DNA of 64,000 nucleotides from Candidatus Kryptoniota bacterium (GCA_046706745.1 JBJKPC010000016.1:95561-159560); one strand, 5' to 3'. Counted from the first letter of the stretch, positions 28,997 through 53,110 are shown. The notes: generated by a model not told the origin, from the letters alone. Numbers and translations: made by a program.

Positions 28997-30259
28997 ATGA
29001 GTATTGCCAATCATCCGAAAGAACAGATAGGCCGCATGCAGACCGGAGATCTAAAGCTCGTAAAGAGCATAAATGACCGGCTCGTTCTGAATCTCCTAAG
29101 AGTCAATAAGATACTTTCGAGTTCCGACCTCGTAAGAATAACGGGGATGCGACCGTCCACCATATTTAACATTCTGAAAGATATGGCCTCGCAGTCGCTT
29201 GTTCTGAACCTGGGGAAAGGCGAGTCTACCGACAAAGGAGGCAAGAAGCCCTATCTATGGAGCCTGAATAGCAGTGCCGCGTATGCTCTGGGGGTGGACG
29301 TCGAGGTTGGAGAGCTGACCGCGGTTATCCTGGATTTCGGCGCCGAGATCGTGGCGAAGAAGATCTACAGGATCGACAAGTTTGAAAAGCTCGATGAGCT
29401 CGTCCACCATATCAATGTCATCGTCGACGATATCCTGTCTCAATCGATGATTGACAGAACCAAGGTGATCGGCCTGGGTGTGGCAGTTGCAGGGATTGTG
29501 GATAATGATACTAACCTTGTAGTTATGACGGATGTGTTCCAGGAAATGAATGTCCCCATGCTGGATGCGCTTCGGAAGCAATACCCCTTTCCGGTTACGA
29601 TCGAGAACAATGCAAATGCTTCCGCCGTTGGTGACAAATGGATCGGTGTTGCCCGCGACAGCAGGAACTCGATGACCGTCTTGATGGAGTTTGACAGGAA
29701 CGTTCATGGCTTCGGGATCGGCGTGATAATTAACGAGCAGCTATACAAAGGTTCATCTTTCTGCGCCGGCGAATTAAATCTTCCGATGTCCGATCTGGGA
29801 GAAATGCTGACCAACATCAGGAGTGAGCTGAGAAATGGGCCGGTTCTGAGGCAGTACGATTCGTCTCCGTCTTCGGTAGATACCAGGGTCATGATCGACG
29901 CGGCCAAGAAAGGTGATCCCGTCGCCTTGTCGTTTTTCAAAAGGGTCGGGCATTTTATCGGGAAAAGGATAGCCAGCGTCATTGCGGTACTCAACCCTGA
30001 CATGTTGATCGTTGCAGGGGATCTTGCGGAGCTGGACGGAATCATAGTTGCTCCGTTAAAAGAGGCGATTGAGATGGAAACACTTTCCACAACGAGCAAC
30101 GCTCTGAATGTGGTGACCAGTTCGCATGGTCACTATTCAGTTGCGGTAGGTGCGGCTTCGACAGTCTTGGCCGCGTACTTTAAGGTCCCTGACATCGGGT
30201 CACTCAACTCGCTGACAGCCAACCGCTTCAAACAGGGAAGGGGCGGGAGGACCGCGTGA
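28997..30259 (+). CDS. ROK-family transcriptional regulator (NagC/Mlc/XylR-like)
   Basis: N-terminal wHTH LKLVKSINDRLVLNLLRVNKILSSSDLVRITGMRPSTIFNILKDM, followed by a ROK sugar-kinase-like fold (GLGVAVAGIVDN, ENNANASAVGDKW, FCAGELN). An alternative start is at 29036. Confidence 0.75.
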   Translation: MSIANHPKEQIGRMQTGDLKLVKSINDRLVLNLLRVNKILSSSDLVRITGMRPSTIFNILKDMASQSLVLNLGKGESTDKGGKKPYLWSLNSSAAYALGVDVEVGELTAVILDFGAEIVAKKIYRIDKFEKLDELVHHINVIVDDILSQSMIDRTKVIGLGVAVAGIVDNDTNLVVMTDVFQEMNVPMLDALRKQYPFPVTIENNANASAVGDKWIGVARDSRNSMTVLMEFDRNVHGFGIGVIINEQLYKGSSFCAGELNLPMSDLGEMLTNIRSELRNGPVLRQYDSSPSSVDTRVMIDAAKKGDPVALSFFKRVGHFIGKRIASVIAVLNPDMLIVAGDLAELDGIIVAPLKEAIEMETLSTTSNALNVVTSSHGHYSVAVGAASTVLAAYFKVPDIGSLNSLTANRFKQGRGGRTA

Positions 30260-30470
30260 TTCATCTCTCGTTCCTTCGCGGCTAGTCTCCTCAATTCATC
30301 AAATCTGCTCGGAAGTCGCCCAGATTATTTTATGAGAAAGTAAACGAAGCGGATTCTCTGGGTCCGACACGCTTTGGTTCATACAGTACCGAGGTGATAC
30401 GTCCCTCAAAGTAGGCTTTTAGTTTATTGGTGCATTTTTAGTCGGGCAGGCTAAGCCGAGAAAATTTTGC

Positions 30471-30499
30471 TTGCAAATAAACGTTCGTGAAGTTACATT
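30471..30499 (+). promoter_or_regulatory. Candidate sigma70-type promoter
   Basis: TTGCAA (30471-30476), a 17-nt spacer, then TACATT (30494-30499). It lies about 310 nt upstream of the next start codon. Confidence 0.3.
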
Positions 30500-30809
30500 G
30501 GGGCTATGGACGGCTCACGACAGGCTGTTAGCGGATTTCGTTATGGCATTGCCTGCCTGAACCATTTCGAAGAACCGAGGAAAAATCATCTATTAAGTGT
30601 CCCGTCCTTCGGCACTTTGTACGCTGAAATGCCGAGTCTTCGATCAGATTCTCCGTTAAGTTTCCTGCGCATTCCAGCGCAACCGCTCGATTCAGGTAGG
30701 GAGTTGGATTATTCCGAACTAATGATTGGCTTTGCGGCCGAGGCTCGCCCGTGACAATTTGCGTTGCAGTCTATAGGGGGAATCTTTCTCTTGTTACCGG
30801 TACTGAATT

Positions 30810-31877
30810 GTGAAAACTAGATCCATAATTCCCGCTTTCGGGCAACCTGAGATTGAGTTCTCTCCGAAGTATTATGTCTGTTACCGGAGTGAAGAACCGA
30901 TTGAGATAAACGGAGACCTCCGCAAGTCTTCGTGGAACCGGGCTAAGTGGAGCGACAATTTTGTAGATATTCTTGGGGATGCCAAGCCCTTGCCCGCGCT
31001 AAGTACACGATTCAAGATGCTCTGGGACAACGATTTCCTTTATGTAGGTGCGGAACTTGAGGAGCCCGATCTCTGGGCTACCATCACAGAGAGAGATTCG
31101 GTCATTTTCGAGGAGAACGACTTCGAAATATTCATTGATCCGGATGGTGACACCCACAATTACTACGAGTTCGAGGTAAATGCACTTGGGACGATATGGG
31201 ACCTCATGCTTCTGAAACCTTACAGGGACGGGGATCAAGTGGCAATAAGTTCTTGGGATGCAAGAGGGCTTAAAGTCGGTGTAATGCTTGACGGCAAATT
31301 GAACGATCCTTCAACCACCGACAAGGGGTGGAGCGCTGAATTGGCAATCCCGTGGAGTGCGCTCGTAGAATCCGCGCCCCGCAATGAACGGCCCTCAAAC
31401 GGTGACCAATGGAGGATGAACTTCCTCAGGGTGGAATGGCGTCGTAAAGTCGTCGCCGGTCGATACGTCAAAGACCGTAACATTCTAACCGGTGAACACC
31501 TCCCGCAACAAAATTCCGTATGGTCACCTCAGGGTGTTATCAGCATGCACTATCCGGAGATGTGGGGATTCGTGCAGTTCTCGGAGATGGATGGCAGAAC
31601 AGGAAACGATGCATTCAACTGGAATCCTGACGAAAATGCCAAATGGGCATTGAGGAAATTATACTACGCTGAAAGAAAATACTTCAGGAATCATGGCGCA
31701 TATACTCCGGACTTTTCAATCCTGAACGTCGAAGGAGAAGTGCCGGAAGGGTACTCCTGGCCTCCTCGTATCTCCGTGACGGCTACGCTCTTCGAGGCGG
31801 TGATCAAGAGTCCCGACGGGACTAAAGAAATGCATATCTCCGGTGACGGCAGAGTATGGATTTCAACGAACCGATAA
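30810..31877 (+). CDS. CBM9/DOMON-like carbohydrate-binding family 9-like protein with no signal peptide
   Basis: GTG start directly after an in-frame stop. The segment W.RAKWSDNFVDILGD..PLP...TRFKMLWDNDFLYVGAELEEPDLWA...NDFEIFIDPDGDTHNYYEFEVNALGTIWDLML matches my recollection of CBM9_2-type domains. Confidence 0.5.
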   Translation: MKTRSIIPAFGQPEIEFSPKYYVCYRSEEPIEINGDLRKSSWNRAKWSDNFVDILGDAKPLPALSTRFKMLWDNDFLYVGAELEEPDLWATITERDSVIFEENDFEIFIDPDGDTHNYYEFEVNALGTIWDLMLLKPYRDGDQVAISSWDARGLKVGVMLDGKLNDPSTTDKGWSAELAIPWSALVESAPRNERPSNGDQWRMNFLRVEWRRKVVAGRYVKDRNILTGEHLPQQNSVWSPQGVISMHYPEMWGFVQFSEMDGRTGNDAFNWNPDENAKWALRKLYYAERKYFRNHGAYTPDFSILNVEGEVPEGYSWPPRISVTATLFEAVIKSPDGTKEMHISGDGRVWISTNR

Positions 31878-32000: not shown

Positions 32001-34343
32001 ATGAAAAAGGTCCTGTCAAAAGTGGAAGAGACGGCCATGACTGCGTCGGGCCAGGCGCTCATGTATTCGCCCACGGAGAAAGTGGGTGTAATAACGGTTG
32101 AAAACTTTCCGATGCTCGGGAAACTCACTGCCCTGCGTTTTCTCGAATGGGCTCAGCAAAACGAAGGGGGGGTGGTGTCGTTGCCTACGGGGAAGACACC
32201 TGAGCATTTTATAAAGTGGGTCTCACACTTTCTGAACGGCTGGTCCGAGCCGGAGGTGGCTCGGGATCTCGAGACTGGCGGCATCGATCCGTCAAGGAAA
32301 CCCGATATAGCCTCGCTCCATTTTGTACAGATCGACGAGTTTTACCCGATCAGTCCCGATCAACACAACAGTTTCTACTACTACGTTAAGAAGTTTTACG
32401 TAGAGGGTTTCGGCTTCGAGGAAGAAAACACGATGCTCATAAACTGTAACGAGATCGGGCTGCCGAAAGGGAAGAAGCTCGAGGATATCTGGCCCGAGAG
32501 TTACGTCGATCTGACTTTGAGGTTTAGGCAGGCAAAGACTGCCCATGAAAGGCTTCAACAGTCTGTACTTGAGAATGTCGATCAATGGTGCGCTGAGTAC
32601 GAGGACAAAATAAGGAAGCGCGGGGGAATAGGGTTCTTTCTGGGGGGAATCGGACCGGACGGGCACATAGGGTTCAACATCAGAGGATCGGACCTCAACT
32701 CCACAACGCGACTCACTCCCACGAACTACGAAACGCAGGCAGCGGCTGCCACTGACCTGGGCGGGATAGAGGTATCGAGAAGGAGGCATGTGATAACGAT
32801 CGGGCTGGGTACCATAACAAATAACCTGCACTGCGCGGCAATAGTAATGGCCGCCGGCGAAGCAAAGAGCCGGGTTGTCGCCGATGCAGTCCAGCACAGG
32901 AAACATGTCCGTTACCCTGCCACCGTGCTTCAGAAGCTTCCTAACGCGAGGTTCTACCTGACCCAGGGAGCCGCAAAACTCCTCGTCGAACGCCGGTACG
33001 AGAAGTTCGTGAAGAAGCAAACGATCACCGAACAGGAAGTCGAAGAAGTAGTCATAAACCTTGCGTTGGAGAAGCGCAAGAAAGTGGCGGATCTGGGCCG
33101 TAAGGATTTCGAAGGGAACAGGTTCGCGTCGGAGGTCCTCAAGAAGCTCAATGAGGAAACCGAGTCGATAATATCGCGAGTCGAGACGCAGCTTATCGAA
33201 CGAATTGAAAGAGGAAGCAAATCGGAACTAAATACCAGGTTTCTCCACACGGAACCGCACCACGACGACATAATGCTTGGCTACCTGGCGTACGTAGTAC
33301 GGCGTGCAAGAGATGCGTCGAACAAGCATACGTTTCTTACCCTTACGAGCGGTTTCAACTCTGTAACTAATCAGCATATGCTCGACCAGCTGAAGAATCT
33401 CAGGTATTTTCTTGAGAAGGGCATGTTCGACAAACTCCTGGAGGAGGGGTATTTCGTGCCGGACGATCCACACATGAGGAATCGGGACATATGGCAGTAC
33501 CTCGACGGTGTAGCCGAGAACAACGCACACACGAGACGTGAAGGAGAGGCGAGAAGGCTGTTGAGAAATCTTGTTACGTTATTCGACGACGGCAGTCGCG
33601 ATAATCTCCTCAATCGCATCGACGAACTGATGAATTATTTCGAGACTCAATATCCCGGGAAGAAAGACCTTCCTCACATACAGCGCTTAAAGGGTATGAT
33701 GCGTGAATGGGAAGCCGAGTGTCTCTGGGGTTATTTCGGATTCAATTCATCTTCGATAAAACATGCCCGCCTGGGTTTCTACAAGGGCGACGTGTTTACA
33801 GAGGAACCAAGGATTGAACGGGATGTCGTTCCGGTCCTTGAGATGTTGCGCGAACTCAAACCAGATATAGTCGGCGTGGCGCTGGACCCCGAAGCGAGCG
33901 GCCCTGACACACATTATAAGGTTCTGCAAGTAATGGCAGAAGCGTTGAAGATGTATGAGGAAGAGAGCGGAAGGCATGATATCAAAATCATTGGCTACAG
34001 AAACATCTGGTACAAATTCCATCCCTCAGAATCCAACGTCTATGTGCCTGTGTCTTTGAATATGTTTTCGGTGCTCAATAACTCGTTCACCAATGCATTC
34101 GCATCGCAAAGGGGAGCGTCGTTCCCGAGTTACGAACTCGACGGGCCGTTTTCCGAACTTGCCCAGAAGATCCAGGTGAACCAGTACCAGATGCTGAAAG
34201 TCTGCCTGGGCAGGGAATACTTCAACGAACACCCGAGTCCGCTCATTCGTGCAACTCGCGGATTCACCTTCGTGCGCCTGATGGATCTCGCCGAATTCTA
34301 CGAGACCTGCATGACTATCAAGAAGAGTACGGAAGAGCTTTGA
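32001..34343 (+). CDS. nagB: Glucosamine-6-phosphate deaminase (NagB-like) fused to an LmbE/PIG-L-like deacetylase-fold region
   Basis: The N-terminal third carries NagB/6-phosphogluconolactonase motifs: VVSLPTGKTPEHF, LHFVQIDEFYPI, GGIGPDGHIGFNIRGS. The C-terminal part begins with the PIG-L/LmbE-like HTEPHHDDIMLGYLAYV. GGAAGGG Shine-Dalgarno site. Confidence 0.7.
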   Translation: MKKVLSKVEETAMTASGQALMYSPTEKVGVITVENFPMLGKLTALRFLEWAQQNEGGVVSLPTGKTPEHFIKWVSHFLNGWSEPEVARDLETGGIDPSRKPDIASLHFVQIDEFYPISPDQHNSFYYYVKKFYVEGFGFEEENTMLINCNEIGLPKGKKLEDIWPESYVDLTLRFRQAKTAHERLQQSVLENVDQWCAEYEDKIRKRGGIGFFLGGIGPDGHIGFNIRGSDLNSTTRLTPTNYETQAAAATDLGGIEVSRRRHVITIGLGTITNNLHCAAIVMAAGEAKSRVVADAVQHRKHVRYPATVLQKLPNARFYLTQGAAKLLVERRYEKFVKKQTITEQEVEEVVINLALEKRKKVADLGRKDFEGNRFASEVLKKLNEETESIISRVETQLIERIERGSKSELNTRFLHTEPHHDDIMLGYLAYVVRRARDASNKHTFLTLTSGFNSVTNQHMLDQLKNLRYFLEKGMFDKLLEEGYFVPDDPHMRNRDIWQYLDGVAENNAHTRREGEARRLLRNLVTLFDDGSRDNLLNRIDELMNYFETQYPGKKDLPHIQRLKGMMREWEAECLWGYFGFNSSSIKHARLGFYKGDVFTEEPRIERDVVPVLEMLRELKPDIVGVALDPEASGPDTHYKVLQVMAEALKMYEEESGRHDIKIIGYRNIWYKFHPSESNVYVPVSLNMFSVLNNSFTNAFASQRGASFPSYELDGPFSELAQKIQVNQYQMLKVCLGREYFNEHPSPLIRATRGFTFVRLMDLAEFYETCMTIKKSTEEL

Positions 34344-34510
34344 TAATGGTGGACCGGCACAAAAGCCAGCCGATGACGATCAAGGCTAGTAACCACGGCT
34401 TGGAGTTAATTTATTCGACAAACGAATCAACATAAGTGTTGGCGCTCGATTGGTCCGCGAAGAATCGTTAAAAATAGCCATCCATTGCAGATAATTAAAT
34501 CAGAAAAAGC

Positions 34511-34539
34511 TTGACAATCACGAGCTGTATACTTAAACT
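34511..34539 (+). promoter_or_regulatory. Candidate sigma70-type promoter
   Basis: TTGACA (34511-34516), a 17-nt spacer, then TAAACT (34534-34539). Confidence 0.3.
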
Positions 34540-34590
34540 TAGGTTGTTTATTCGATCTATTAATAAACGTAACCGGGACAGATAAAAAAA

Positions 34591-34754
34591 GTGCCTCCAG
34601 CAGCGGAAATGAAGCACCATTGTCGGAAAGAGTCGAACCGCTATCGGTTGCGTAAGACGAGGAAGACTTCGACGGGTGAAACCATCCTGCTGAAGAGCAA
34701 GCTCTCGATCCGGTTTCCTGACTTGCCGCTCTCCCCGGCACGCATTTCTGTTTT
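34591..34754 (+). promoter_or_regulatory. Candidate structured RNA leader or sRNA of unknown class
   Basis: Nested complementary pairs: GTGCC 34591-95 / GGCAC 34737-41; CAGCAG 34598-603 / CTGCTG 34687-92; GTCGAA 34632-37 / TTCGAC 34668-73. A local hairpin AGAG-CAAG-CTCT sits at 34694-705, with an alternative partner GCTCT at 34728-32. A T-rich tract ATTTCTGTTTT at 34744-54 follows. Confidence 0.3.
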
Positions 34755-34966
34755 GGATTCCCCGCCTTGCCCTCAAAGTTGCATCACCCCATCCCGATCT
34801 TCTGCGGCCGGACCCGAAAAAGGCAATACTCCTCCGATGCGGATCTCCTTCAGCGTGGCATCCGGCTCGCTCTCTGAGTTGAAAGAAGGGATGCGATTCT
34901 CTCGGAAAGAAAAGCGAAAAATAAAATCTCTTACCGATCATGAATGAACTACCGAAGGACAGTACA

Positions 34967-37933
34967 ATGACCCGACTAATACCCAGGACGTTTGGTCTCG
35001 CTTCCGTAATAATCACTTTCCTTTTTGCCTCCGCACTGGCTGCCCAGAACGGTGCGGTGCATGGAAGGGTCGAGGATGCACACACGGGCGATGCTTTGCC
35101 CGGTGCAAACGTCTTCCTGGTGGGAACAAGTCTTGGGGCGTCCACCGGGCTGAACGGAAGGTTCATGATCAAGGATGTTCCCCCGGGGTCATATACGGTT
35201 CGGACCACTTACATCGGGTACAAGACTAGTGAGAGGATCTTAAAGATCGGACCGGGGGCTGATATGGAAATAACGCTGCGCCTCGAGGCCGTGGGCGTGC
35301 AGGGGAAAGAAGTTGTTGTCACTGCACAGGCAAGCGGGCAGAACCAGGCCATCAATCAGCAACTTTCTTCCAGCCAAATCGTCAACGTCGTCTCAGCCGC
35401 CAGGATCCAGGAACTGCCCGATGCTAACGCTGCTGAATCACTGGGAAGACTACCCGGAATTTCTGTGCTAAGGACCGGCGGAGAAGCTGACCAGGTGGTT
35501 ATTCGGGGGATGGCACCGAGGTTCAATCAGGTAATGATCAACGGCGTCGAACTTCCTTCCACCAGCGCGGACAGCCGCAGCATGGATATAAGCATGATTT
35601 CCTCCAACATGCTGGAGGGAATGGAGGTCAAGAAAACTGTCACGCCTGATATGGACGCCAGTGTCATCGGCGGTGTCGTCAATCTGGAATTGAGGGAAGC
35701 TCATGTGGTCACCCCCGGTGTGCCCGTGGTCGGCCTGCTGGTTCAGGGAGGCTACAACGCTCTTCCCGACGCGTATAACAAATTAAATAACTATAAGTAC
35801 GTCGGAAGCGTCGAGGACAGGTTTTTCAATAAGAAGTTCGGAGTGTTCGCACAGGTTGACGTTGAGCGAAGAAATCTCACGTCGAACCAACTTGGCGCCA
35901 CATATGAAAATGACGGAAATCTGATCCCGCAATATTACATGGATGCGCTAAACCTGGACAACATCGCCCGCGACAGGCGAAGATACGACGGTGCGTTGGT
36001 TCTTGATTACAGACTGCCTTCCGGGACGATCAAATTCTCCAATTTCCTGAGTACTGAAACCACGAATTCGGAAGATCGCGGCGAGGCCTTCGGGATAAAG
36101 GGGAACGCGGTCATCGGGTCCAACCAACTCAACACCACACTCGGATATACCGGGAGCACTCTAAGTGTCATTATGAACGCTCTGCACTTTCAATATCAGC
36201 TTCCCATCTTTCGTGTAAATGTGCTGCTTTCTCATTCATACACGGAGACCAAGGATCCCCAGGATTGGACCGCCACATTCATTCAAGGTAATGCCGCAAT
36301 CAATTCTCTGAGCGGTGTCGCAAATCTGAATCCTCTGGTCGTGCCCGGGTCTTTCAACGACGATCCAAGCAAATCCCTCCTTCAGAACATCGCCAACACG
36401 AACAGCTTTTCGAGAGGCCGCGCACTCTCAGCCTCAGTTGATCTGGAAGCGAACCTCAACTTGTCGAATGAAATCACTTCGGTCATAAAATTCGGTGGGA
36501 TGGAACGGTACCAAACACGATCCTATGACTTTAACACCACCGGAACCCAGGGGCTGAATATTGAAAGCTCGAGCGTGTTCGACAACGCGCTGCAGAAACA
36601 ACTTTGGGGCTCGGTAAAGTACAATAACGCAGATATTGCCATGTCGAGTTTCGTGGATCCCAGCTACAGTTTCGGAAAGTTTCTCGGGGGAGACTACAAG
36701 ATGCTCTATCCTCTGAATTACGGCGAGCTTTCGACGTGGGCTAATTACCTGCTGAACAATGTAGCAAACGTGCCAAGCAAGAACAGTGTGGCATATTTCC
36801 AGGACCAGGCGAATTCCACCATGAGCGACTATGCAGGGCATGAGGATCAGAGCGCGGGATACGTAATGGCAACCATAAACTTCGGTCCAATGATAACTCT
36901 GATCCCGGGTGTGCGTTTTCAAAATCTACAAACAACATACACGGGATCACGTGGCTTTCAGAATACTCAGTCCGATCTCGGTGCCGGACCATACAATCAC
37001 TATGATACGACAATAACTCAGAGTCACGGTTTCTGGTTGCCCGACGTCGCCCTCCAGTTCAGGCCCCTGGCATGGTTCAATGTCCGTTTATCCTATACCA
37101 ACACACTCGCGTATCCCGACTATCAAGCCATTATTCCTGAAATAAATGTAAGTTCAACCGAAGGGGTGATAACATACAACAATTTTGCGCTGGTTCCTTC
37201 CCGATCAACAAACTATGACGTCTACATGTCCTTTTATGACAATTCGCTCGGACTCCTGACAGTCGGCGGCTTCCTGAAGCAGATCGATAATCTGATCTTT
37301 CAGGAGCAGCTACTGATTACTCCTTCAAATATCTTCAAATATTTTCCCCCGGGTTTGATCTCGAACGCCCATACACCGACCGCAAATCCGCAAGTCACCA
37401 CTTTCATAAACGATCCTAACAGAGCAGTCGACTACGGATTGGAATTTGACTGGCAGACCCACTTCTGGTACTTGCCGCATCCGTTTGACGGGCTGGTCCT
37501 CAACGTCAACTACACGCATGTCTTTTCAAAGGAAAAATACCCGTACGTGGCAATTCCAACAACTGGCCGCTCAAGAACTCCTTTTGATACTTCATATACG
37601 ACAAGTCTGCTCTATCAGCCCGACAACATTGCGAATCTATCCGTCGGATATGACTATAAAGGCTTTTCAATAAGGATATCGATGATTTATCAGGACAAGA
37701 TTTTTTCGGGAACCAATTACTGGCCTCAGCTGAGGACCACGACAAGCGCCTATACGAGATGGGACCTTTCGGCAAAACAAACACTGCCATGGTACGGGGT
37801 GCAGATCTATGGAGACATAAGTAACCTGAATAGCGAAGACGATATCGAGGTAATACAGGCTCCTACCGGCGTTCCACAGTCGCGGCAGTCGTACGGCATG
37901 ACGGGCGACCTTGGACTTAGAGTGAATTTCTGA
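34967..37933 (+). CDS. TonB-dependent outer-membrane receptor with an N-terminal carboxypeptidase-regulatory-like domain (oligosaccharide-uptake type)
   Basis: Signal peptide MTRLIPRTFGLASVIITFLFASALAAQ. CarbopepD_reg segment GRVEDAHTGDALPGANVFLVGTSLGASTGLNGRFMIKDVPPGSYTV. Plug segment LPGISVLRTGGEADQVVIRGMAPRFNQVMINGVELPS. Long beta-barrel ending ..LGLRVNF. ATG 34967 has a GAAGGA site upstream; ATG 34940 has none. Confidence 0.85.
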   Translation: MTRLIPRTFGLASVIITFLFASALAAQNGAVHGRVEDAHTGDALPGANVFLVGTSLGASTGLNGRFMIKDVPPGSYTVRTTYIGYKTSERILKIGPGADMEITLRLEAVGVQGKEVVVTAQASGQNQAINQQLSSSQIVNVVSAARIQELPDANAAESLGRLPGISVLRTGGEADQVVIRGMAPRFNQVMINGVELPSTSADSRSMDISMISSNMLEGMEVKKTVTPDMDASVIGGVVNLELREAHVVTPGVPVVGLLVQGGYNALPDAYNKLNNYKYVGSVEDRFFNKKFGVFAQVDVERRNLTSNQLGATYENDGNLIPQYYMDALNLDNIARDRRRYDGALVLDYRLPSGTIKFSNFLSTETTNSEDRGEAFGIKGNAVIGSNQLNTTLGYTGSTLSVIMNALHFQYQLPIFRVNVLLSHSYTETKDPQDWTATFIQGNAAINSLSGVANLNPLVVPGSFNDDPSKSLLQNIANTNSFSRGRALSASVDLEANLNLSNEITSVIKFGGMERYQTRSYDFNTTGTQGLNIESSSVFDNALQKQLWGSVKYNNADIAMSSFVDPSYSFGKFLGGDYKMLYPLNYGELSTWANYLLNNVANVPSKNSVAYFQDQANSTMSDYAGHEDQSAGYVMATINFGPMITLIPGVRFQNLQTTYTGSRGFQNTQSDLGAGPYNHYDTTITQSHGFWLPDVALQFRPLAWFNVRLSYTNTLAYPDYQAIIPEINVSSTEGVITYNNFALVPSRSTNYDVYMSFYDNSLGLLTVGGFLKQIDNLIFQEQLLITPSNIFKYFPPGLISNAHTPTANPQVTTFINDPNRAVDYGLEFDWQTHFWYLPHPFDGLVLNVNYTHVFSKEKYPYVAIPTTGRSRTPFDTSYTTSLLYQPDNIANLSVGYDYKGFSIRISMIYQDKIFSGTNYWPQLRTTTSAYTRWDLSAKQTLPWYGVQIYGDISNLNSEDDIEVIQAPTGVPQSRQSYGMTGDLGLRVNF

Positions 37934-39851: not shown

Positions 39852-39894
39852 GGCGGGATTGCCTGCCTCCCCAGGCAGTCCCGCCTTGATTATT
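39852..39894 (+). terminator. Rho-independent terminator
   Basis: GGCGGGA (39852-58) ... TCCCGCC (39879-85) with an inner GCCTG/CAGGC helix, followed by TTGATTATT. Confidence 0.65.
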
Positions 39895-41810: not shown

Positions 41811-41842
41811 ATAAAGCAGAACTTTATCGATAGGAAAACTAA

Positions 41843-44266
41843 ATGCATTACGGTTTTTTTGACAATGATAATAGGGAATATGTGATTGAACGTCCGGATG
41901 TTCCGGTTTCGTGGACGAACTATCTCGGTGTCAAGGATCTGTGTACGGTTATTTCCCATAATGCGGGTGGATACACATTCTACAAATCGACGGAGCATCA
42001 CAGGGTGACGCGGTTCCGGCCAAACGGGATCCCTCTCGACCGGCCGGGGCATTACATTTACATAAGGGACGACGAAACCGGTGAGTACTGGACGGTCTCG
42101 TGGCAGCCCGTCGGGAAAGATTTTTCCACTGACGGGAAGGAAGATGGAAAAGCCAGATATACCTGCCGTCATGGCTTGTCGTATTCGAAATTCCAGTGCG
42201 ACTACCGGGACATTCAGGCTGAACAACTGGTCTTCATCCCGGTGAATGACGATGTGGAATTATGGGACGTGAGATTGAGGAACAAAAGCGGCAAGCCGCG
42301 GAAGCTCAGTATCTTCTCGTACGTCGAGTTCTCGTTCCATCATGTTGAAATTGACAATGAAAACTTCCAGATGAGCCTTTATGCCGCTGGTTCCAATTAC
42401 AAGGATGGAATCATCGAGTATGATTTCTTTTACGAGCCCTGGACAAATCACTTTTTAGCATCCAGTTTTGATCCGGACGGATATGATTGTGTACGCGACA
42501 GGTTCATCGGACCCTACAGAACCGAATCCAATCCCATCGTGGTGGAGCGGGGAAAGTGCTCCGACAGCACGGAACTCGGAGGAAATCATTGCGGCACCCT
42601 TCACAAGCGGTTGTCATTGAAACCTGGAGAAGAGACTCGTTTGATCTTCATGCTGGGAGTCGGCTCACGCGCAGAAAAGGGATATGCGGCGAAGAAGAGA
42701 TACTCCGCTCTGAAGAATGTAGACTCGGCATTCCTTGAATTGAAAAGATACTGGAACCGAAAAACCTCGGTATTCCAGTGCAAGACGCCAAACGAGGGAC
42801 TGAACACCATGGTAAACACCTGGACACTCTATCAGGCGGAAACCTGTGTCGTATGGTCAAGGTTTGCCTCGTTCATAGAAGTTGGGGGCAGGGTCGGACT
42901 CGGTTACAGGGATACTTCACAGGATATTATGGCGGTTCCGCACACCAATCCCCGCAAAGTGAAGGAAAGAATCAGAGAACTACTTCATGGCCAGGTGAGC
43001 AAGGGATACGGCCTCCATTTATTCGACCCGGATGTCTTTAAGCCGCAGGAAGACCGTCTTCCGGGCGTCAAACTGCCTACAGTTGTTCCAACTCCCGATC
43101 CCCACTCCATCGTGCACGGGATGGAAGATGTGTGCTCCGACGATGCGCTCTGGATAGTCGGTTCCGTCTGCGAATACGTGATGGAGACAGGTGAGTTAGA
43201 GTTCTTCAACGAAGTGATCCCGTTTGCAGACGAGGGCAAAGCGTCAGTGTATGAACACCTGAAGCGGTCGATCGATTTCACTGCCGAGCAAACCGCCCGC
43301 AACGGTGTCTGTCTCGGCTTGCGCGCCGACTGGAACGATTGCCTTAATCTCGGGGGCGGCCAGAGCGGTATGGTGTCGTTCATGCACTACTGGGCTATAA
43401 AATACTTCGTCGGGGCGGCGGAAATACTCGGTTACGAAAACGACGTTCAGGAATACTCTAAGATGGCGGAGAATGTCCGTCTATCTGTCGAGAGAGAGCT
43501 ATGGGATGGAGAGTGGTACGCGCGAGGCGTTACGCGTGCGGGAATCAAGATCGGCGTAAAGACCAACAAGGAGGGAAAAATCTTCCTGGAAAGCAATAGC
43601 TGGGCGGGCCTCTCGGGAGCTGCCTCGCCCGAGCGTGCCCGAAGCGCCATGGACGCGGTTCACAAGTACCTTGCTTCTCCTTACGGGCTGCATCTAAACT
43701 GGCCTACTTATACTGAGCCAGATGACGACATCGGATACGTTACACGCGTCTATCCGGGCGTGAAGGAAAACGGTTCGATATTCAGCCATCCCAACCCGTG
43801 GGCCGTGATAGCGGAATGCAAACTCGGACGCGGCGGTAAGGCGATGAGCTTGTTTGACGCACTCCTTCCTTATAACCAGAACGATATGATCGAGATTCGC
43901 CAATCGGAGCCGTATGTTTACTGCCAGTTTGTTATGGGAAAAGACCACACGGCATACGGCCGCGCACGGCACCCGTGGCTTACCGGGAGCGGGGGATGGA
44001 GCTACACCGCCGCCACCAAATATATTCTGGGTATACGTCCCTCATACGAAGGGCTTGTGATCGACCCGGCGATTCCGTCTGATTGGGACGAGTTCGAAGT
44101 GATCCGAAAATGGCGCGGCGCAACCTACTACATAATCGTCAGGAACCCGGAGCACGTGGAGTATGGGGTGAAACATATTCTCGTGAACGGCACGAAAGTG
44201 AAAGATATTGTCCCCGTCCAACCAGAAGGAACCAAGAACCAGATAGAAGTGGTAATGGGGAAGTGA
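41843..44266 (+). CDS. GH94 disaccharide phosphorylase (cellobiose / N,N'-diacetylchitobiose phosphorylase family)
   Basis: The N-terminus MHYGFFDNDNREYVIERPDVPVSWTNYLG is near-identical in pattern to cellobiose/chitobiose phosphorylases. At 807 aa it matches the family size. There is no signal peptide. Substrate cannot be assigned from sequence alone. Confidence 0.8.
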   Translation: MHYGFFDNDNREYVIERPDVPVSWTNYLGVKDLCTVISHNAGGYTFYKSTEHHRVTRFRPNGIPLDRPGHYIYIRDDETGEYWTVSWQPVGKDFSTDGKEDGKARYTCRHGLSYSKFQCDYRDIQAEQLVFIPVNDDVELWDVRLRNKSGKPRKLSIFSYVEFSFHHVEIDNENFQMSLYAAGSNYKDGIIEYDFFYEPWTNHFLASSFDPDGYDCVRDRFIGPYRTESNPIVVERGKCSDSTELGGNHCGTLHKRLSLKPGEETRLIFMLGVGSRAEKGYAAKKRYSALKNVDSAFLELKRYWNRKTSVFQCKTPNEGLNTMVNTWTLYQAETCVVWSRFASFIEVGGRVGLGYRDTSQDIMAVPHTNPRKVKERIRELLHGQVSKGYGLHLFDPDVFKPQEDRLPGVKLPTVVPTPDPHSIVHGMEDVCSDDALWIVGSVCEYVMETGELEFFNEVIPFADEGKASVYEHLKRSIDFTAEQTARNGVCLGLRADWNDCLNLGGGQSGMVSFMHYWAIKYFVGAAEILGYENDVQEYSKMAENVRLSVERELWDGEWYARGVTRAGIKIGVKTNKEGKIFLESNSWAGLSGAASPERARSAMDAVHKYLASPYGLHLNWPTYTEPDDDIGYVTRVYPGVKENGSIFSHPNPWAVIAECKLGRGGKAMSLFDALLPYNQNDMIEIRQSEPYVYCQFVMGKDHTAYGRARHPWLTGSGGWSYTAATKYILGIRPSYEGLVIDPAIPSDWDEFEVIRKWRGATYYIIVRNPEHVEYGVKHILVNGTKVKDIVPVQPEGTKNQIEVVMGK

Positions 44267-44481: not shown

Positions 44482-46071
44482 ATGAACAAATCTCTGATTC
44501 TCCTCCTCATGGCACTCATGTCAATGGGAAAAACTACCACGGCTCAATCCAGGGCATTCAGAATCATTGCATATTTCCCTGAATGGGGAATCGAGCATCG
44601 GCCACCTTACTACGTGAAGGACATCGTCTCGAGCGGCGCTGCTGACAGGCTTACGGATCTAATTTACGCGTTCTCTGAACCAGCGCCGGATTTTGAAGGT
44701 GGGATCGAACCGCAGTTCATGAACGCTTATGAAGCTTATCAGCAAATCTACTCCGCAGCCATGAGCGTAGACGGAGTCGCAGACGATTCGACCCAACCCC
44801 TGAGAGGCGAGTTGAACCAGATTCGGAAATTGAAGCTGCGATATCCGAATCTCAAAGTTTTGATTTCCATTGGCGGTTGGACGGGGTCTGCCTATTTTTC
44901 TCTCGCGCTAGAGACCCCTTCGTCCAGGAGAAGATTTGCCGACGCAATTATCAATCGGTATATCCTGGGAAATCTTCCGAAGGTTGGCACGGCCGGCGGA
45001 GAGCGGGTTGCGGCCGGTATTTTCGACGGCGTGGACATAGACTGGGAATTTCCTGTGAGCGGCGGAAATGCCGGCAATAATCATAACCCGAAAGACGCAC
45101 AACATCTTACCGAGTTTTTGGCTCTCATGAGGGAGAAATTAGACTCGATCGATCGGAATCTCCTGCTGACCGAAGCGGTCCCCTCAGGCGAAACGGCTCT
45201 CGCGAATTACCAGATCGAGAAAGATCAGGAATATCTTAGCTGGTTCAATTTGATGACATATGATTTCACCGGTGCGTGGAATCCCGTCACAGGGTTTCAC
45301 ACTAATTTGCTCACTCCCGCCGAAGACACCTCGGCAAACTCTTTAGATAGGGCCGTGAAATATTTCCTGGATAGTTTGAAGGTGCAGCCGGCAAAAATCG
45401 TCCCGGGCGCGGCTTTCTACGGGAGGGGATGGAGAGACGTTGGTTCAAAAGACGACGGCTTGTTCCAGCATGCCAGCGGGGCGGCGCAGGGAGAATACGA
45501 ATCGGGAATACAGGATTTTTCCCTTCTTATGCCACTATTAAGAGAAGGGTATGAATATCATTGGGACCCGTCGGCAATGGCCCCGTGGCTTTACAGTCCC
45601 GCCGATCGAATCTTTTGGTCGATGGATGACGCGAAGTCCATCGCTTTGAAATACCACTATGCCGTCGCTTATCACCTGGGCGGAATTATGTCCTGGGAAA
45701 TCAGCGGTGACGATTCGTCAGGGACTCTGATTAAGGCGATGGCTACAGGCGAAATGCCGGAAGCGCGTCGTTTTCATTACAAGGCCGAGTCAGAGAAAGG
45801 TGTGAATGCGACCATATCGATCTCAGTTCCTTCACCGATAATTGCCGCCGGATCGAATGTGATACTCGATGCATGGATAACCGGCCAGAGCAAGAATATC
45901 GTAAGAGTAGAGTTCTTTGTTGACGGGAAGACGATCGGTTACGATACTGAGGCCCCTTTCGACTGGGTGTGGTTCAATGCGACGAAAGGGGTCCACACGA
46001 TAGAAGCTGTGGCCTTTGACGGTGTAGGGAACCGAACAACTTCAAATACTGTGTCAATCAAAGTGAAGTGA
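44482..46071 (+). CDS. GH18 chitinase with a C-terminal Ig-like (Big_7-type) domain
   Basis: Signal peptide MNKSLILLLMALMSMGKTTTAQS. Catalytic motif FDGVDIDWEFP (DxxDxDxE). Further GH18 elements: MTYDF, and YHLGGIMSWEISGD. Ig-like tail RVEFFVDGKTIGYDTEAPFDWVW...GVHTIEAVAFDGVGN. No T9SS domain. Confidence 0.85.
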   Translation: MNKSLILLLMALMSMGKTTTAQSRAFRIIAYFPEWGIEHRPPYYVKDIVSSGAADRLTDLIYAFSEPAPDFEGGIEPQFMNAYEAYQQIYSAAMSVDGVADDSTQPLRGELNQIRKLKLRYPNLKVLISIGGWTGSAYFSLALETPSSRRRFADAIINRYILGNLPKVGTAGGERVAAGIFDGVDIDWEFPVSGGNAGNNHNPKDAQHLTEFLALMREKLDSIDRNLLLTEAVPSGETALANYQIEKDQEYLSWFNLMTYDFTGAWNPVTGFHTNLLTPAEDTSANSLDRAVKYFLDSLKVQPAKIVPGAAFYGRGWRDVGSKDDGLFQHASGAAQGEYESGIQDFSLLMPLLREGYEYHWDPSAMAPWLYSPADRIFWSMDDAKSIALKYHYAVAYHLGGIMSWEISGDDSSGTLIKAMATGEMPEARRFHYKAESEKGVNATISISVPSPIIAAGSNVILDAWITGQSKNIVRVEFFVDGKTIGYDTEAPFDWVWFNATKGVHTIEAVAFDGVGNRTTSNTVSIKVK

Positions 46072-46161: not shown

Positions 46162-49100
46162 TCACTTCATTCCGTCGACATCAGTCGGGTTGAGTATTAT
46201 CGCCAGTACGCCTTTGTTCTTCAATAAGCTGTTGAAGGAAGGGATTGTCGACGTCATAAGGCGCTTGTACTCGACTTCAACATTTGCCAGCCGCCGCGCG
46301 AGCAAATTGTATACAGCTAGATCCTGATCTGTGGGAGCGAAATCCGGGCTTCCCGCGACGTCTCCGGCGCCGTCTCCAACCTCTCCGGCAAGCCAAAGGA
46401 ATTTCATATAGAGTTGCATCGGTGCTGCGTAAGTCTTTTCGTCGTCGGCTGCCAGGTATTTCTGGAACAGCTTGTTCTCGATAGTTTCGATTTTCCGGTC
46501 CAGAGATTTTGCAGAATCCATGATCGACGATGCGCCGCTCAAACCGCGTAGATAGACCGGCATATCCTCAATTTGGAGGCGGACACGTTCGATGGAATTG
46601 ATCATGCCGACCACGGTATCGATTTTCGAATCGATGTCGCGCCAAAGCTTAACGCTCGATCGTATGTCGGCGAGCGTTCCGGCGGAATGAGGATCCTTGA
46701 GGACGGTCAGCGGCGTCGTCAGAGTCTTGCCGTTGACGGTCAGCTTAACGCTGTACAACCCGGGGTCTGCGAGCGCTCCTTCAAGCGTGGGGCCGATTCC
46801 CCAGTGGTATATAGGTCTGGTCTTCTTCCCGATGAAACGCGAGTCACTCCATATCTGCGGATATGCGGGCGGAGTCGTTCGGAGCTTTATCTCCTTTACG
46901 CGCGGGTAGCGGAGGTCCCAGTAAACTCTGTTGATTCCCGCCTTTCTCGTTCCTTCAAATGTTCGCACAACGTTGCCCGTCGAATCAAGAATTGTGATCT
47001 TAACACCTGTTTTGGGAGTGGTCTTCAAATAGTAGTCAATGTCGGCGCCGTAGCGCGGATTCTGTCCCATCGAAGCATCATCGGGTACTTCCCTCGGGAC
47101 GCTGATCCGACGGTAGCGGTATGCGGGCCGCGTTTTGAAAAGATACTCGGAAGAATTCAGGATGCCGGCATTGAGTTGCTCGAGCGGTTTTATGTCGTCG
47201 AGTATCCAGAAACCCCGCCCCTTTGTTGCCAGAACCAGATCGTGGAAGTGTTTCTGGACCACTATCCAGGAAACAGGCGCATGGGGAAGATTGATGTTTA
47301 GCGGAATCCAGTGCGTGCCATAATCGTATGTCATGTAGATGGAATTCTCAGTCCCCGCAAAAAGCATCCCCTGCCTGAACGGGTCTTCAATCACGATGTG
47401 AACATAGCTGAACACGCTTTTCGGTATGTCCCCGCTGATGAACTTCCACGACTTTCCGTAATCCGTAGTCATATAGATGTATGGATTGCGGTTATCCATC
47501 TGGTGGAAATTTACGCTGATGAATGCTTCGCCCGGATTGAACGGTGAAGCGTCAATATTGTTGATGGTTCCGTACTTAGGCAGATCGGGGATATTGCCTG
47601 TAACGTTTATCCATTTCTTGCCTCCGTCGGTCGTGACATGCACAAGCCCGTCGTTCGAACCGGTCCATATTACCCCTTCTTTGATGGGCGAGACAGCTAT
47701 GGAGAACAATGTCCCCCAGTACTCTACCCCAAGGTTGTCCGGCGTCAGCCCTCCGGAACTTCCCATGTGGCTGTGGTCATCGAGAGTGAGATCGGGACTT
47801 ATGACTTGCCAGCTTTGTCCGGCGTCGGTCGTTCTGTGAACGTACTGGCTTCCGACGTAGACTGTGTTGTGATGGAGCGGGTCTATCACGAGCGGCATTG
47901 TCCAGTTCCATCTGTATTTCAGGACTCCTGCCGGAGAGTCGAGTGATTTGCTGGGCCACGGGCTGACGGATCTTGTCTGGCCTGTTTTAAGGTTGAACCT
48001 GTCCACTTCTCCCGCGTAGCAATTACCCCATACGATATTGTTGTCTACAGGATCGGGATAGGAGAATCCCGACTCACATCCGGCCGTCGTACTCCAGTCG
48101 CTCGAAGGAATGCCGCCATAAGTCCGAGTGTTGCTAGGACCGCGGACAGACTCATCGTCCTGCATGTTCCCATAAAGATCGTACGGGATTCGATTGTCGA
48201 CGGCAACATGATACATCTGCCCGATCGGCAAAATAATGTGGCGCCATGTCTTACCGCGATTGATCGAAATGAAGAGTCCTATGTCGGATCCTATCATCAT
48301 GCGGTCGGCATCGGTAGGATCGGCCCACATGGCATGATTGTCCCCTGCCCAGTCGGTCTGGTAGACGGTTCTTCCACCATCCAGCGTATACCAGATTTCA
48401 TTCGACGGGAAATACACTTCGTTCGCGTCGTCCGGCGATATCAGTAAACGCGTGTAGTAGTGCGGACGTTCGTTCAACATGCGGTTGTAACTCACGACGT
48501 GCCAGCTTTCACCTCTGTTGTCGGACCTCCAGAGCGAACCGCGTCCGTTTCCACCCGTCTCAATCAAGGCGTACATCACATTTTGATCGCTTTGTGCAAT
48601 TCCGACCGCGATTTTGCCGAGGGGAGGCTTAGGCAGGCCGTTGGTTAAAAGTTTCCACGTCACCCCCTCGTCTGTGGACATCCACACGCCGCTTCCGGGC
48701 CCGCCGCTGTTCTGTCCCCAGGTGTGTATCACATATTGCCACGTTCCTGCCAGAAGAATCCGCGGGTTGTCGGGGTCCATAGCCAGATCAGAAGCCCCGG
48801 TATTAGGATTGACAAACAGAACTCTTTTCCAGGTTTTGCCGCCATCGCTTGTGCGGAAGACACCTCTTTGCTGCTGCGGTCCGTAGCAGTTTCCTTCAGC
48901 CGCGACCAGGACAATATCCGGGTTCTTCGGATCGATGACCACACGTGATATCCTGCCTGTCTTCCCCAGACCCATGTGCATCCATGTCCTTCCGGCATCC
49001 GTAGATTTGTAAACGCCGTCGCCGATCGAGACATTGCTGCGAATGAACGGCTCACCTGTTCCGACCCAAACAATGTTGTGATCGGAAGGGGCGATGGCAA

Positions 49101-49401
49101 TGTCACCGATCGACTGCGCGGGTTCCTTGTCAAATATCGGAAACCAGTGCGTCCCGGCATCGGTAGATTTCCATACTCCACCGGATGCTGCGCCGGCGTA
49201 GTACACGTCCATGTCTCCGGGAACGCCGACCACCGCTGAAACGCGGTTTCCGCCGGGACCCACAAACCTGTAATGAAGACCCGAGAGCATAGCCGGGTTT
49301 GGGTCGAGCTCCTGTCCTTTTACAGATAGTACTGCACTGAAGAAGAATGCCATGAAAAGATGGAAGGACAGTCTGGAGAGTCGTTGGAATCTCATTGCCA
49401 T
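46162..49401 (-). CDS. Sortilin/VPS10-type double beta-propeller protein with BNR/Asp-box repeats (GH74-like fold)
   Basis: Signal peptide. About 11 Asp-box-like motifs: WKSTDAGTHW, YKSTDAGRTW, FRTSDGGKTW, MSTDEGVTW, HRTTDAGQSW, VTTDGGKKW, MTTDYGKSW and others. Its ~1079 aa length is typical of this family. Confidence 0.7.
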   Translation of the reverse strand: MAMRFQRLSRLSFHLFMAFFFSAVLSVKGQELDPNPAMLSGLHYRFVGPGGNRVSAVVGVPGDMDVYYAGAASGGVWKSTDAGTHWFPIFDKEPAQSIGDIAIAPSDHNIVWVGTGEPFIRSNVSIGDGVYKSTDAGRTWMHMGLGKTGRISRVVIDPKNPDIVLVAAEGNCYGPQQQRGVFRTSDGGKTWKRVLFVNPNTGASDLAMDPDNPRILLAGTWQYVIHTWGQNSGGPGSGVWMSTDEGVTWKLLTNGLPKPPLGKIAVGIAQSDQNVMYALIETGGNGRGSLWRSDNRGESWHVVSYNRMLNERPHYYTRLLISPDDANEVYFPSNEIWYTLDGGRTVYQTDWAGDNHAMWADPTDADRMMIGSDIGLFISINRGKTWRHIILPIGQMYHVAVDNRIPYDLYGNMQDDESVRGPSNTRTYGGIPSSDWSTTAGCESGFSYPDPVDNNIVWGNCYAGEVDRFNLKTGQTRSVSPWPSKSLDSPAGVLKYRWNWTMPLVIDPLHHNTVYVGSQYVHRTTDAGQSWQVISPDLTLDDHSHMGSSGGLTPDNLGVEYWGTLFSIAVSPIKEGVIWTGSNDGLVHVTTDGGKKWINVTGNIPDLPKYGTINNIDASPFNPGEAFISVNFHQMDNRNPYIYMTTDYGKSWKFISGDIPKSVFSYVHIVIEDPFRQGMLFAGTENSIYMTYDYGTHWIPLNINLPHAPVSWIVVQKHFHDLVLATKGRGFWILDDIKPLEQLNAGILNSSEYLFKTRPAYRYRRISVPREVPDDASMGQNPRYGADIDYYLKTTPKTGVKITILDSTGNVVRTFEGTRKAGINRVYWDLRYPRVKEIKLRTTPPAYPQIWSDSRFIGKKTRPIYHWGIGPTLEGALADPGLYSVKLTVNGKTLTTPLTVLKDPHSAGTLADIRSSVKLWRDIDSKIDTVVGMINSIERVRLQIEDMPVYLRGLSGASSIMDSAKSLDRKIETIENKLFQKYLAADDEKTYAAPMQLYMKFLWLAGEVGDGAGDVAGSPDFAPTDQDLAVYNLLARRLANVEVEYKRLMTSTIPSFNSLLKNKGVLAIILNPTDVDGMK

Positions 49402-53105: not shown

Positions 53106-53110
53106 CAACG

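Follow-up and report, generated by a model that had tools for sequence, protein, structure and literature searches.

In Vibrio species, chitin oligomers enter through a chitoporin and are trimmed in the periplasm before the disaccharide is imported by an ABC transporter, and the chb operon encodes an N-acetylglucosamine (GlcNAc)-1-P mutase, a GlcNAc kinase, and a hexosaminidase. In the classical polysaccharide utilization locus (PUL) scheme of Bacteroidota, to which the chitin utilization locus (ChiUL) of Flavobacterium johnsoniae belongs, SusC/SusD pairs and a GH20 hexosaminidase are combined with import of the monomer. In Xanthomonas, Caulobacter, and Shewanella, a TonB-dependent receptor (TBDR) is combined with the major facilitator superfamily (MFS) transporter NagP and with NagK, NagA, and NagB-II, and GlcNAc is imported as a monomer after hydrolysis. 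Here, we describe a locus at positions 28,997–49,401 of a 64,000-nucleotide stretch of DNA from a Candidatus Kryptoniota bacterium (GCA_046706745.1 JBJKPC010000016.1:95561-159560; hereafter, the window), which we consider a likely chito-oligosaccharide uptake and phosphorolytic catabolism locus, present in this genome as a rearranged and partly eroded copy. All ten open reading frames (ORFs) of the locus were recovered at the positions that a preliminary description, made from the sequence, had assigned to them. The main ORFs of the 64-kb window were defined as the longest per position among ORFs of at least 150 aa; domain searches were run against Pfam and NCBIfam with curated cut-offs, alongside PDB sequence searches, AlphaFold2 (AF2) models, and Foldseek comparisons to the PDB. 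The related loci referred to below represent the best 79 of 478 GH94 relatives found in a scan with one genome per species; individual loci are designated by L numbers.

The locus shares with the chb operons of V. furnissii, V. cholerae, and V. proteolyticus the cytoplasmic GH94 step, which produces GlcNAc-1-P and GlcNAc, and, as predicted here, the periplasmic trimming of oligomers ahead of disaccharide import; unlike these operons, it uses a TBDR, a partner protein with a type IX secretion system (T9SS) signal, and an MFS permease, and contains no mutase, kinase, or hexosaminidase in the window. As in the F. johnsoniae ChiUL, the canonical form of the locus includes a T9SS GH18, TonB-dependent uptake, a putatively periplasmic GH18, and a glucosamine-6-P (GlcN-6-P) deaminase-like gene, but it lacks SusD and GH20 and includes an AmpG-like candidate disaccharide permease and a phosphorylase instead. 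The carbohydrate utilization loci containing TBDRs (CUT loci) of Xanthomonas, Caulobacter, and Shewanella also operate without SusD, with a TBDR of the same TIGR01782 subfamily, an inner-membrane transporter of the MFS type, and their own transcriptional regulator; unlike the locus described here, they contain neither GH94 nor a T9SS partner protein. The AmpG-like permease, a fusion of NagB-like and LmbE-like domains, and the T9SS partner protein (designated T9b) are found in none of the Vibrio, Xanthomonas/Caulobacter/Shewanella, and F. johnsoniae schemes. The preliminary description had called the use of an AmpG-family permease with GH94 for chitobiose a departure from the textbook Bacteroidota or Vibrio scheme; a phosphorolytic chitobiose route outside Vibrio had already been proposed from Fibrobacteres and Acidobacteria genomes. 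This locus architecture was not described in the literature searched, which left out most subscription journals.

The gene at 41,843–44,266 (+ strand) encodes an 807-aa GH94 protein with both domains at full length (PF06165, E = 7e-76; PF17167, E = 1e-174). The best PDB match was the chitobiose phosphorylase (ChBP) of V. proteolyticus (1V7V; 1150 bits), with which the protein is collinear from residue 1 to the end and shares 59% global identity; the other PDB matches were 8BOU (542 bits), 3QDE (501 bits), 2CQS (457 bits), 4ZLE (238 bits), and 5NZ7 (73 bits), with cellobiose phosphorylases scoring 450–500 bits, i.e., less than half of the ChBP score. All ChBP active-site positions checked are identical in this protein, including R349, D350, W490, the catalytic D492, V631, H644, Q690, and T709. 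No signal peptide was found in the GH94 protein, in line with its N-terminal collinearity with the V. proteolyticus enzyme, and the protein is therefore expected to be cytoplasmic. Also identical are Q168, R343, and G710, the roles of which in ChBP have been described (PMC5309861). The GH94 of Ignavibacterium album (IALB_1006, or IaGP), which is listed as an assayed chitobiose phosphorylase in a review table (PMC8950772), represents the same enzyme type and comes from the same broad lineage, and GH94 proteins from Ignavibacteria metagenome-assembled genomes (MAGs) are 67–74% identical to the window protein; the gene neighborhood, transporter, and TBDR partner of IALB_1006 were not described in the literature searched. 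Assignment of the window protein to the N,N'-diacetylchitobiose phosphorylase type (EC 2.4.1.280) is thus strongly supported as a predicted activity, as the preliminary description had proposed. With phosphate, the enzyme would convert (GlcNAc)2 to α-GlcNAc-1-P and GlcNAc in the cytoplasm; homology to two enzymes with assayed activity provides strong support for this step.

Since GH94 is best known for cellobiose phosphorylases, and since the locus also includes a CBM9-like protein (CBM9 modules bind cellulose or xylan ends), we considered a locus for cellobiose, cellodextrins, or β-glucan with GH94 as the cellobiose phosphorylase. This reading is extremely unlikely, because the ChBP score is more than twice that of any cellobiose phosphorylase, the ChBP active-site residues are kept, and the locus includes two GH18 genes and a GlcN-6-P deaminase-like gene and no GH5, GH9, or GH3. 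Scores and active-site residues rule out a cellobiose phosphorylase assignment for the enzyme itself; in the comparison with characterized ChbP and CBP enzymes, the protein groups with the former and not with cellobiose or cellodextrin phosphorylases.

The 79 related loci were from Kryptonia, Ignavibacteria, Melioribacteraceae, Calditrichota, KSB1, Anaerolineales, and Acidobacteria, with the closest GH94 relatives (76–84% identity) found in MAGs designated "Bacteroidetes bacterium" and Candidatus Kryptoniota; judging from these matches, the window most likely derives from a Kryptonia-related lineage of the Fibrobacteres–Chlorobi–Bacteroidetes (FCB) group. Mapping of the window proteins and clustering of all ORFs in the related loci yielded a canonical gene order, i.e., ROK regulator, (ROK kinase-like), TBDR, T9b, GH18 with T9SS C-terminal domain (CTD; ~465 aa), MFS, (small GH18, ~400 aa), GH94, GH18 (~530 aa), and NagB/LmbE fusion (~785 aa). 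On the upstream side of GH94, and within two genes of it, the MFS gene was found in 55 of the 67 related loci with enough flanking sequence, Acidobacteria included. TBDR orthologues are present at the equivalent position in 36 related loci, and a T9b homologue is the next gene after all but one of 36 full-length TBDRs (35/36). In 21 of 75 loci, the gene that directly follows GH94 is a GH18 orthologue (46–62% identity). Three T9b homologues (43–46% identity) that were picked without reference to GH94 all turned out to lie inside the same cassette. The clustering of the locus exceeds chance, and this locus type is common to Kryptonia, Ignavibacteria, Calditrichota, and KSB1 genomes. The conserved gene order also fits the route put forward in the preliminary description, leading from the TBDR through the AmpG-like MFS to the cytoplasmic GH94.

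Variations on the canonical order were also seen. In Acidobacteria (L056, L061, L065, L072, L073, and L075–L079), the order is MFS (48–50% identical to the window MFS), GlmU(N-terminal)/GlmM-like fusion, GH94, GH18, OMP_b-brl_4 barrel, TPR, and FG-GAP/ASPIC; the fusion joins a GlmU nucleotidyltransferase domain to a GlmM-like mutase (705–769 aa; a 488-aa fragment in L078), which suggests direct channeling of GlcNAc-1-P. An extra small GH18 (385–430 aa), missing in the window, is present between MFS and GH94 in L017, L019, L020, L026, L029, L031, L039, L083, L084, and others; it showed a weak match to ChiD and a weaker match to EndoH, and, if cytoplasmic, would mean that oligomers longer than chitobiose are imported.

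The permease gene (40,509–41,810, + strand) encodes a 433-aa MFS protein of the AmpG/PAT family (MFS_1, E = 2.5e-19). TIGR00901 (AmpG) is its best NCBIfam match, although at 108.7 bits against a cut-off of 350; the protein shares 21% identity with E. coli AmpG along its full length (E = 6e-12), and its more than 7900 homologues are labeled "PAT family AmpG" by JGI. KEGG/JGI-style labels of this kind, together with the TIGR00901 match, would fit a peptidoglycan-recycling module with a true AmpG importing GlcNAc-anhMurNAc muropeptides, but this is very unlikely given the score, the low identity to AmpG, and linkage to GH94 and GH18 across phyla; moreover, none of the peptidoglycan-recycling genes sought (NagZ, AmpD, AnmK, and MurQ) was found near the MFS gene. 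Score, identity, and gene context thus led us to reject a true AmpG, and judging from its sequence the permease is a distant PAT-family member rather than an AmpG orthologue. E. coli AmpG, a muropeptide:H+ symporter of the same MFS family, has as its substrate a β-1,4-linked GlcNAc-containing disaccharide, whereas the window permease is linked to chitin genes and not to cell-wall recycling genes. Because AmpG takes a GlcNAc disaccharide, because the MFS gene is strictly linked to GH94 across phyla, and because the locus contains no other inner-membrane transporter, the best inference is that this MFS is a candidate inner-membrane (GlcNAc)2 importer, which would deliver the disaccharide to GH94. 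No proposal of an AmpG-like MFS for chitobiose was found in the literature searched.

The TBDR gene (34,940–37,933, + strand) encodes a 997-aa protein of the TonB-Xanth-Caul subfamily (TIGR01782, 360.8 bits; cut-off 310) with a signal peptide (as read from the sequence), an N-terminal CarboxypepD_reg domain, a Plug domain (E = 2e-16), and a barrel (E = 1e-22). The SusC/RagA model was not among its Pfam and NCBIfam matches, no SusD-family match was found among the main window ORFs, and the gene that follows the TBDR is T9b, rather than the SusD gene of a SusC/SusD-type PUL. The preliminary description of the locus as SusD-less is thus correct for the window, but this is normal for the lineage, since a metagenomic study found susCD to be scarce in Ignavibacteriales carbohydrate-active enzyme (CAZyme) clusters and absent in Kapabacteria (PMC10576277), and the TBDR does have a conserved partner. 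The non-coding region upstream of the TBDR (34,344–34,939) is unusually long (596 bp) and includes a sigma-70-like promoter match at 34,511–34,539, which implies a leader of ~400 nt; Rfam and tRNA scans of the window, this region included, yielded no matches.

The T9b gene (38,045–39,829, + strand) encodes a 594-aa protein with a signal peptide and a type-A T9SS CTD (TIGR04183, E = 5.6e-12), the latter representing its only domain match; these two features identify it as T9SS cargo. Its AF2 model (predicted local distance difference test [pLDDT], 85; predicted template modeling score [pTM], 0.77) presented the strand pattern of a right-handed β-helix. Foldseek comparison of this model to the PDB yielded nothing better than E = 1e-3, with weak matches to phage tailspikes, rhamnogalacturonan and fucoidan lyases, and an adhesin; a T9b profile run against PDB sequences found only the T9SS CTD, and 24 of 52 T9b homologues presented a weak match to PF13229. 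The β-helix part appears to be narrowly distributed, as a search of 1.84 billion cluster representatives recovered just 208 matches to it at E ≤ 1e-3. In all eight look-ups that started from T9b, independently of GH94, a TBDR was located directly upstream, and five divergent T9b paralogues (25–28% identity), found in loci of other content, each directly follow a TBDR with the same architecture. One paralogous TBDR/T9b locus (L085) includes CBM9_1, GH125, GH3, MFS, and ROK genes. In another (L087), genes for an extracytoplasmic function (ECF) sigma factor and an anti-sigma factor of the FecR type precede the TBDR/T9b pair, and three large T9SS proteins with faint Glug matches are encoded after it; an ECF sigma/anti-sigma layout is typical of many classical PULs, which L087 thus resembles in its regulation while having no SusD.

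The TBDR/T9b pair looks like a recurrent two-gene module in the position otherwise held by SusC/SusD. We tentatively raise the possibility, which is the less probable side of the matter, that T9b represents a new family of accessory partners for glycan TBDRs in SusD-less lineages of the FCB group, either as a SusD analogue or as a surface glycan-binding or -processing protein. As with SusD and surface glycan-binding proteins, T9b is encoded directly downstream of the TBDR, and the protein is expected either at the cell surface or outside the cell; its paralogues, also in a SusD-like manner, diversify across glycan loci, with one under ECF-sigma/anti-sigma control. Unlike SusD, which is all-α and TPR-like and carries a lipoprotein signal, T9b is a predicted right-handed β-helix with export by a T9SS CTD. 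If this possibility holds, T9b would sit beside its cognate TBDR at the cell surface and would capture or pre-process oligosaccharides (here, chitin fragments), while paralogous pairs would serve other glycans. For the locus described here, chitin fragments would be captured at the surface and passed to the TBDR, a step in which T9b would probably help.

The intact GH18 gene (44,482–46,071, + strand) encodes a 529-aa protein with a catalytic domain over residues 27–410 (PF00704, E = 1.6e-65) and a C-terminal Big_7 domain over residues 445–509. Its catalytic motif is intact (FDGVDIDWE; DxxDxDxE), and its best PDB matches are family-18 chitinases and chitodextrinases, not EndoH-type enzymes. The protein carries a Sec signal peptide (MNKSLILLLMALMSMGKTTTAQ, followed by S) without a lipobox Cys, and no match to the T9SS CTD model (TIGR04183) was found; where T9SS is the export route for surface and extracellular enzymes, as in this organism, a Sec signal without T9SS CTD suggests a periplasmic location. 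The enzyme is therefore probably a periplasmic chitodextrinase, which would trim oligomers to chitobiose, a role that its family, catalytic motif, and predicted location are consistent with. The idea that an extracellular GH18 of this locus releases chitobiose is less likely, since the intact GH18 has neither a T9SS CTD nor a lipobox and the gene of the extracellular type is a degraded remnant.

This remnant of a T9SS GH18 gene is found in a 158-aa ORF at 39,948–40,424 (+ strand), on which Pfam yielded no match. Its homologous part (~39,999–40,355) aligns to residues ~330–450, i.e., the C-terminal end, of 460–480-aa T9SS GH18 genes in relatives (32–40% identity; E = 1e-19 to 1e-25), in agreement with the preliminary designation as a GH18 remnant; full-length T9SS GH18 genes are present at the same position in L007, L009, L010, L014, and L016. 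The ORF has lost the 330 N-terminal residues, and with them the catalytic motif; its sorting domain is degraded, and a GGIMIWE motif is retained. Among close relatives, the secreted T9SS GH18 was lost outright in L002–L004 and L006 and kept in L005 and L007. With the secreted chitinase of the locus now a pseudogene, the organism probably scavenges oligomers released by others rather than attacking crystalline chitin, unless further chitinases are encoded elsewhere in the genome. An independent assembly with an identical MFS-to-HAD stretch (L001; Logan contig SRR31309758_58021) ends inside the remnant, at window position ~40,257, which may represent an assembly break at a repeat or a strain-variable junction.

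The window locus is a rearranged, partly eroded copy of the shared cassette. In addition to the loss of the T9SS GH18, the NagB/LmbE gene is found ahead of the TBDR rather than at the cassette end, and neither the ROK kinase nor the small GH18 seen in the canonical cassette is present. The TBDR, T9b, MFS, GH94, GH18, and NagB/LmbE genes are full-length ORFs, with 60–86% identity to their orthologues. A terminator-like hairpin (39,852–39,885, + strand) with a 14-bp stem, including 10 G-C pairs, and a T-rich tail is located downstream of T9b; this strong hairpin suggests that TBDR-T9b and MFS-GH94(-GH18) represent separate transcription units. The GC-rich hairpin arm GGGATTGCCTGCCT at 39,854–39,868 recurs with two mismatches at 30,544–30,558, in the ROK/CBM9 intergenic region, and may represent a small repeated hairpin element.

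The fusion gene (32,001–34,343, + strand) encodes a 780-aa protein with a NagB-like region over residues ~1–400 and an LmbE/PIG-L fold over residues ~410–780. The N-terminal half presented NagB matches among PDB sequences (E = 5e-17), but the protein scored below all NagB cut-offs (PF01182, 18.8 vs. 27 bits; TIGR00502, 84 vs. 237; PRK02122, 195 vs. 384). For the isolated C-terminal half, PF02585 (PIG-L/LmbE) gave no match at E up to 5, and a profile of 42 fusion homologues found no LmbE structure among PDB sequences; detection of the LmbE domain by sequence thus failed, and the match was found by structure prediction alone. In the AF2 model built from the 42 homologues (pLDDT 81; <50 for residues 224–265), the N-terminal half matched NagB in Foldseek (E = 1e-12; template modeling [TM] score 0.7–0.8) and the C-terminal half matched LmbE-family structures (probability 1.00; TM 0.63–0.68), including the GlcNAc-PI de-N-acetylase LnmX (5bmo, E = 1e-4) and the Pyrococcus furiosus diacetylchitobiose deacetylase (4xm0, E = 4e-4; TM 0.63). 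PHHDD (residues 419–423) and PDTH (635–638) are invariant in the 42 homologues, and we presume that they form the His/Asp/His metal site of the LmbE family. The NagB-like half contains the QIDEF and GPDGHIGFN motifs, with FNIRG in place of the canonical FNEP, i.e., with loss of the Glu. The earlier label of NagB-LmbE fusion therefore stands at the level of fold and metal motifs and not at the level of sequence matches to LmbE. Similar to the P. furiosus deacetylase Dac (4XM0), the C-terminal half combines an LmbE fold and His/Asp metal motifs with a chitin context; unlike Dac, to which it is only ~11–12% identical, it is joined to a NagB-like domain and contains large helical insertions.

Going by the modeled folds, we infer that the fusion would carry out deacetylation of GlcNAc-6-P and then deamination in one protein, towards fructose-6-P, which would make NagA unnecessary. 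In accordance with the preliminary description, no GH20, NagA, sugar kinase (including GlcNAc kinase), α-phosphohexomutase, or SusD was found among the main ORFs scanned in the window. The lack of the kinase, NagA, and mutase is due to rearrangement and erosion in one genome and is not a peculiarity of the pathway. The loci of relatives include genes resembling ROK glucokinases immediately ahead of the TBDR, a NagA gene (L015; TIGR00221, 335 bits, cut-off 226), canonical NagB (TIGR00502, 427 bits), an alternative GlmU (TIGR03991, 455 bits), and the GlmU(N-terminal)/GlmM-like fusion adjoining GH94; this linkage of enzymes for GlcNAc and GlcNAc-1-P to GH94 supports the phosphorolytic route. GlcNAc-1-P can be used directly by housekeeping GlmU to form UDP-GlcNAc, and, in the organism studied here, a GlcNAc kinase and a GlcNAc-1-P enzyme (a mutase or the housekeeping GlmU) must be encoded elsewhere in the genome. 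A HAD hydrolase encoded at 53,160–53,810 was considered as the missing mutase and rejected, as it is a small HAD that travels with RpiB and a transaldolase/phosphoglucose-isomerase (TAL-PGI) fusion in L004.

The first gene of the locus (28,997–30,259, + strand) encodes a 420-aa ROK/NagC-like regulator (PF00480, E = 3e-31) that aligns to the NagC model over residues 15–390, far under the equivalog cut-off. Its sequence reads as that of a protein with a degenerate kinase ATP motif (GVDVEVGEL) and without the CxCG zinc motif. ROK orthologues (55–61% identity) head the loci L009, L010, L013, L014, and L016, and canonical loci are headed by 405–420-aa ROK genes with MarR/HTH matches. This protein would presumably act as a NagC/Mlc-like regulator of the locus.

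The preliminary description had also counted the CBM9-like and VPS10/BNR genes as locus members, but neither belongs to the conserved core. Homologues of the 355-aa CBM9_1-like protein (30,810–31,877, + strand; PF06452, E = 2.8e-10), which showed weak PDB matches to xylanase CBM9 modules, are present in the vicinity of just 3 of the 79 related loci, with one more in the TBDR/T9b locus L085. Its orthologues in L010 and L021 have a signal peptide, whereas the window copy encodes none, because an in-frame stop is found directly upstream of its GTG start; the gene, which is preceded by a 550-bp non-coding stretch (30,260–30,809), may be 5'-truncated or inactive. The 1079-aa Sortilin-Vps10/BNR-repeat exported protein (46,162–49,401, − strand; PF15902, E = 8e-34) has a BNR-repeat "glycosyl hydrolase" (3b7f, E = 7e-10) as its sole PDB match, and its gene adjoins GH94 only in the closest relatives (L002, L003, and L006–L008).

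Several observations weigh against a functional chito-oligosaccharide pathway in the form proposed here. In the closest relatives L002, L004, and L006–L008, GH94 is directly followed by a gene for GH125, an exo-α-1,6-mannosidase, usually with the Sortilin/BNR gene as well, which hints at N-glycan or mannan processing in this clade and at N-glycan cores as a substrate. The locus might thus mainly salvage the chitobiose core of N-glycans or of other GlcNAc glycans (e.g., from fungal or host glycoproteins) rather than chitin, particularly as ChbP acts on chitobiose from any source, as several close relatives, like the window locus, have lost the secreted chitinase, and as the paralogous locus L085 combines CBM9_1, GH125, and GH3. 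We regard this as unlikely for the window locus, which contains no GH125 and in which the intact GH18 is closest to chitinases and chitodextrinases and not to EndoH-type enzymes; in addition, the canonical cassette in dozens of genomes has a T9SS GH18 and no mannosidase. Chito-oligosaccharides remain the favored substrate. The pseudogene in place of the secreted GH18 and the CBM9-like gene without signal peptide may indicate decay of the locus. These two genes, the missing ROK kinase and small GH18, and the rearranged gene order would be expected if the locus were an evolutionary relic, recognizable but encoding no working pathway; this is quite unlikely, however, because the six core genes are full-length with conserved catalytic or invariant residues and high identity to their orthologues, and because several close relatives without the secreted GH18 keep the core, which looks like a stable "scavenger" configuration. 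For the working pathway that we favor, further points to be set on the other side include a substrate for the MFS that is taken from gene linkage and the distant (21%) relation to AmpG, and a kinase, mutase, and NagA that are not in the window. The fusion has a NagB half that is below cut-offs, with FNIRG for FNEP and a poorly modeled segment (residues 224–265), and some relatives carry bona fide NagA and/or canonical NagB next to it, so that it may do something other than the work of NagA and NagB. Finally, a search for a shared NagC-type operator, as palindromes or shared 15-mers across intergenic regions, found nothing convincing besides the repeated GC-rich hairpin-like motif.

Other genes in the window also relate to carbohydrate use and T9SS export. 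A separate α-glucan/dextran locus (3993–20,284), which contains neither TBDR nor SusD, encodes a GH66 with T9SS CTD, a β-propeller T9SS protein, a GDSL/TPR protein, a 1056-aa GH13 with T9SS CTD, a SurA-like PPIase, a 519-aa MFS, and a cytoplasmic GH13. At 1163–2182, a gene for an outer-membrane protein of the PorV-like type adjoins one for a T9SS-CTD protein (2234–3814). The region between the α-glucan and chitin loci (20,565–26,986) encodes a LuxR-type response regulator and two large PAS/GAF sensor kinases, one of which is a hybrid with a receiver domain. Directly downstream of the chitin locus, the predicted end product of which is fructose-6-P, is a pentose-phosphate group (49,821–53,810) that consists of RpiB, the 942-aa TAL-PGI fusion, and the HAD hydrolase and is kept as a block in L004; a nuo operon is located further downstream.

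Chitin is among the most abundant biopolymers, and bacteria of the Ignavibacteria and Kryptonia type are common in sediments, soils, and hot springs, with few of them cultured. Ignavibacteriae have been reported to respond to chitin amendment in anoxic sediments (PMC6715849). The locus described here provides a model for the use of chitin fragments by such bacteria, in which TonB-dependent uptake, as in Bacteroidota and Xanthomonas, would be joined to the ATP-saving phosphorolysis of Vibrio by a hitherto unassigned AmpG-like permease. Specialists will find little to surprise them in the pathway as such; the TBDR/T9b module and the candidate chitobiose permease represent specific leads. The MFS, as a chitobiose permease, and the NagB/LmbE fusion, as a possible alternative deacetylase/deaminase, are candidates for annotation transfer, and the small T9b family, which accompanies the TBDR where SusD is scarce, bears on how glycans may be captured outside SusC/SusD systems.

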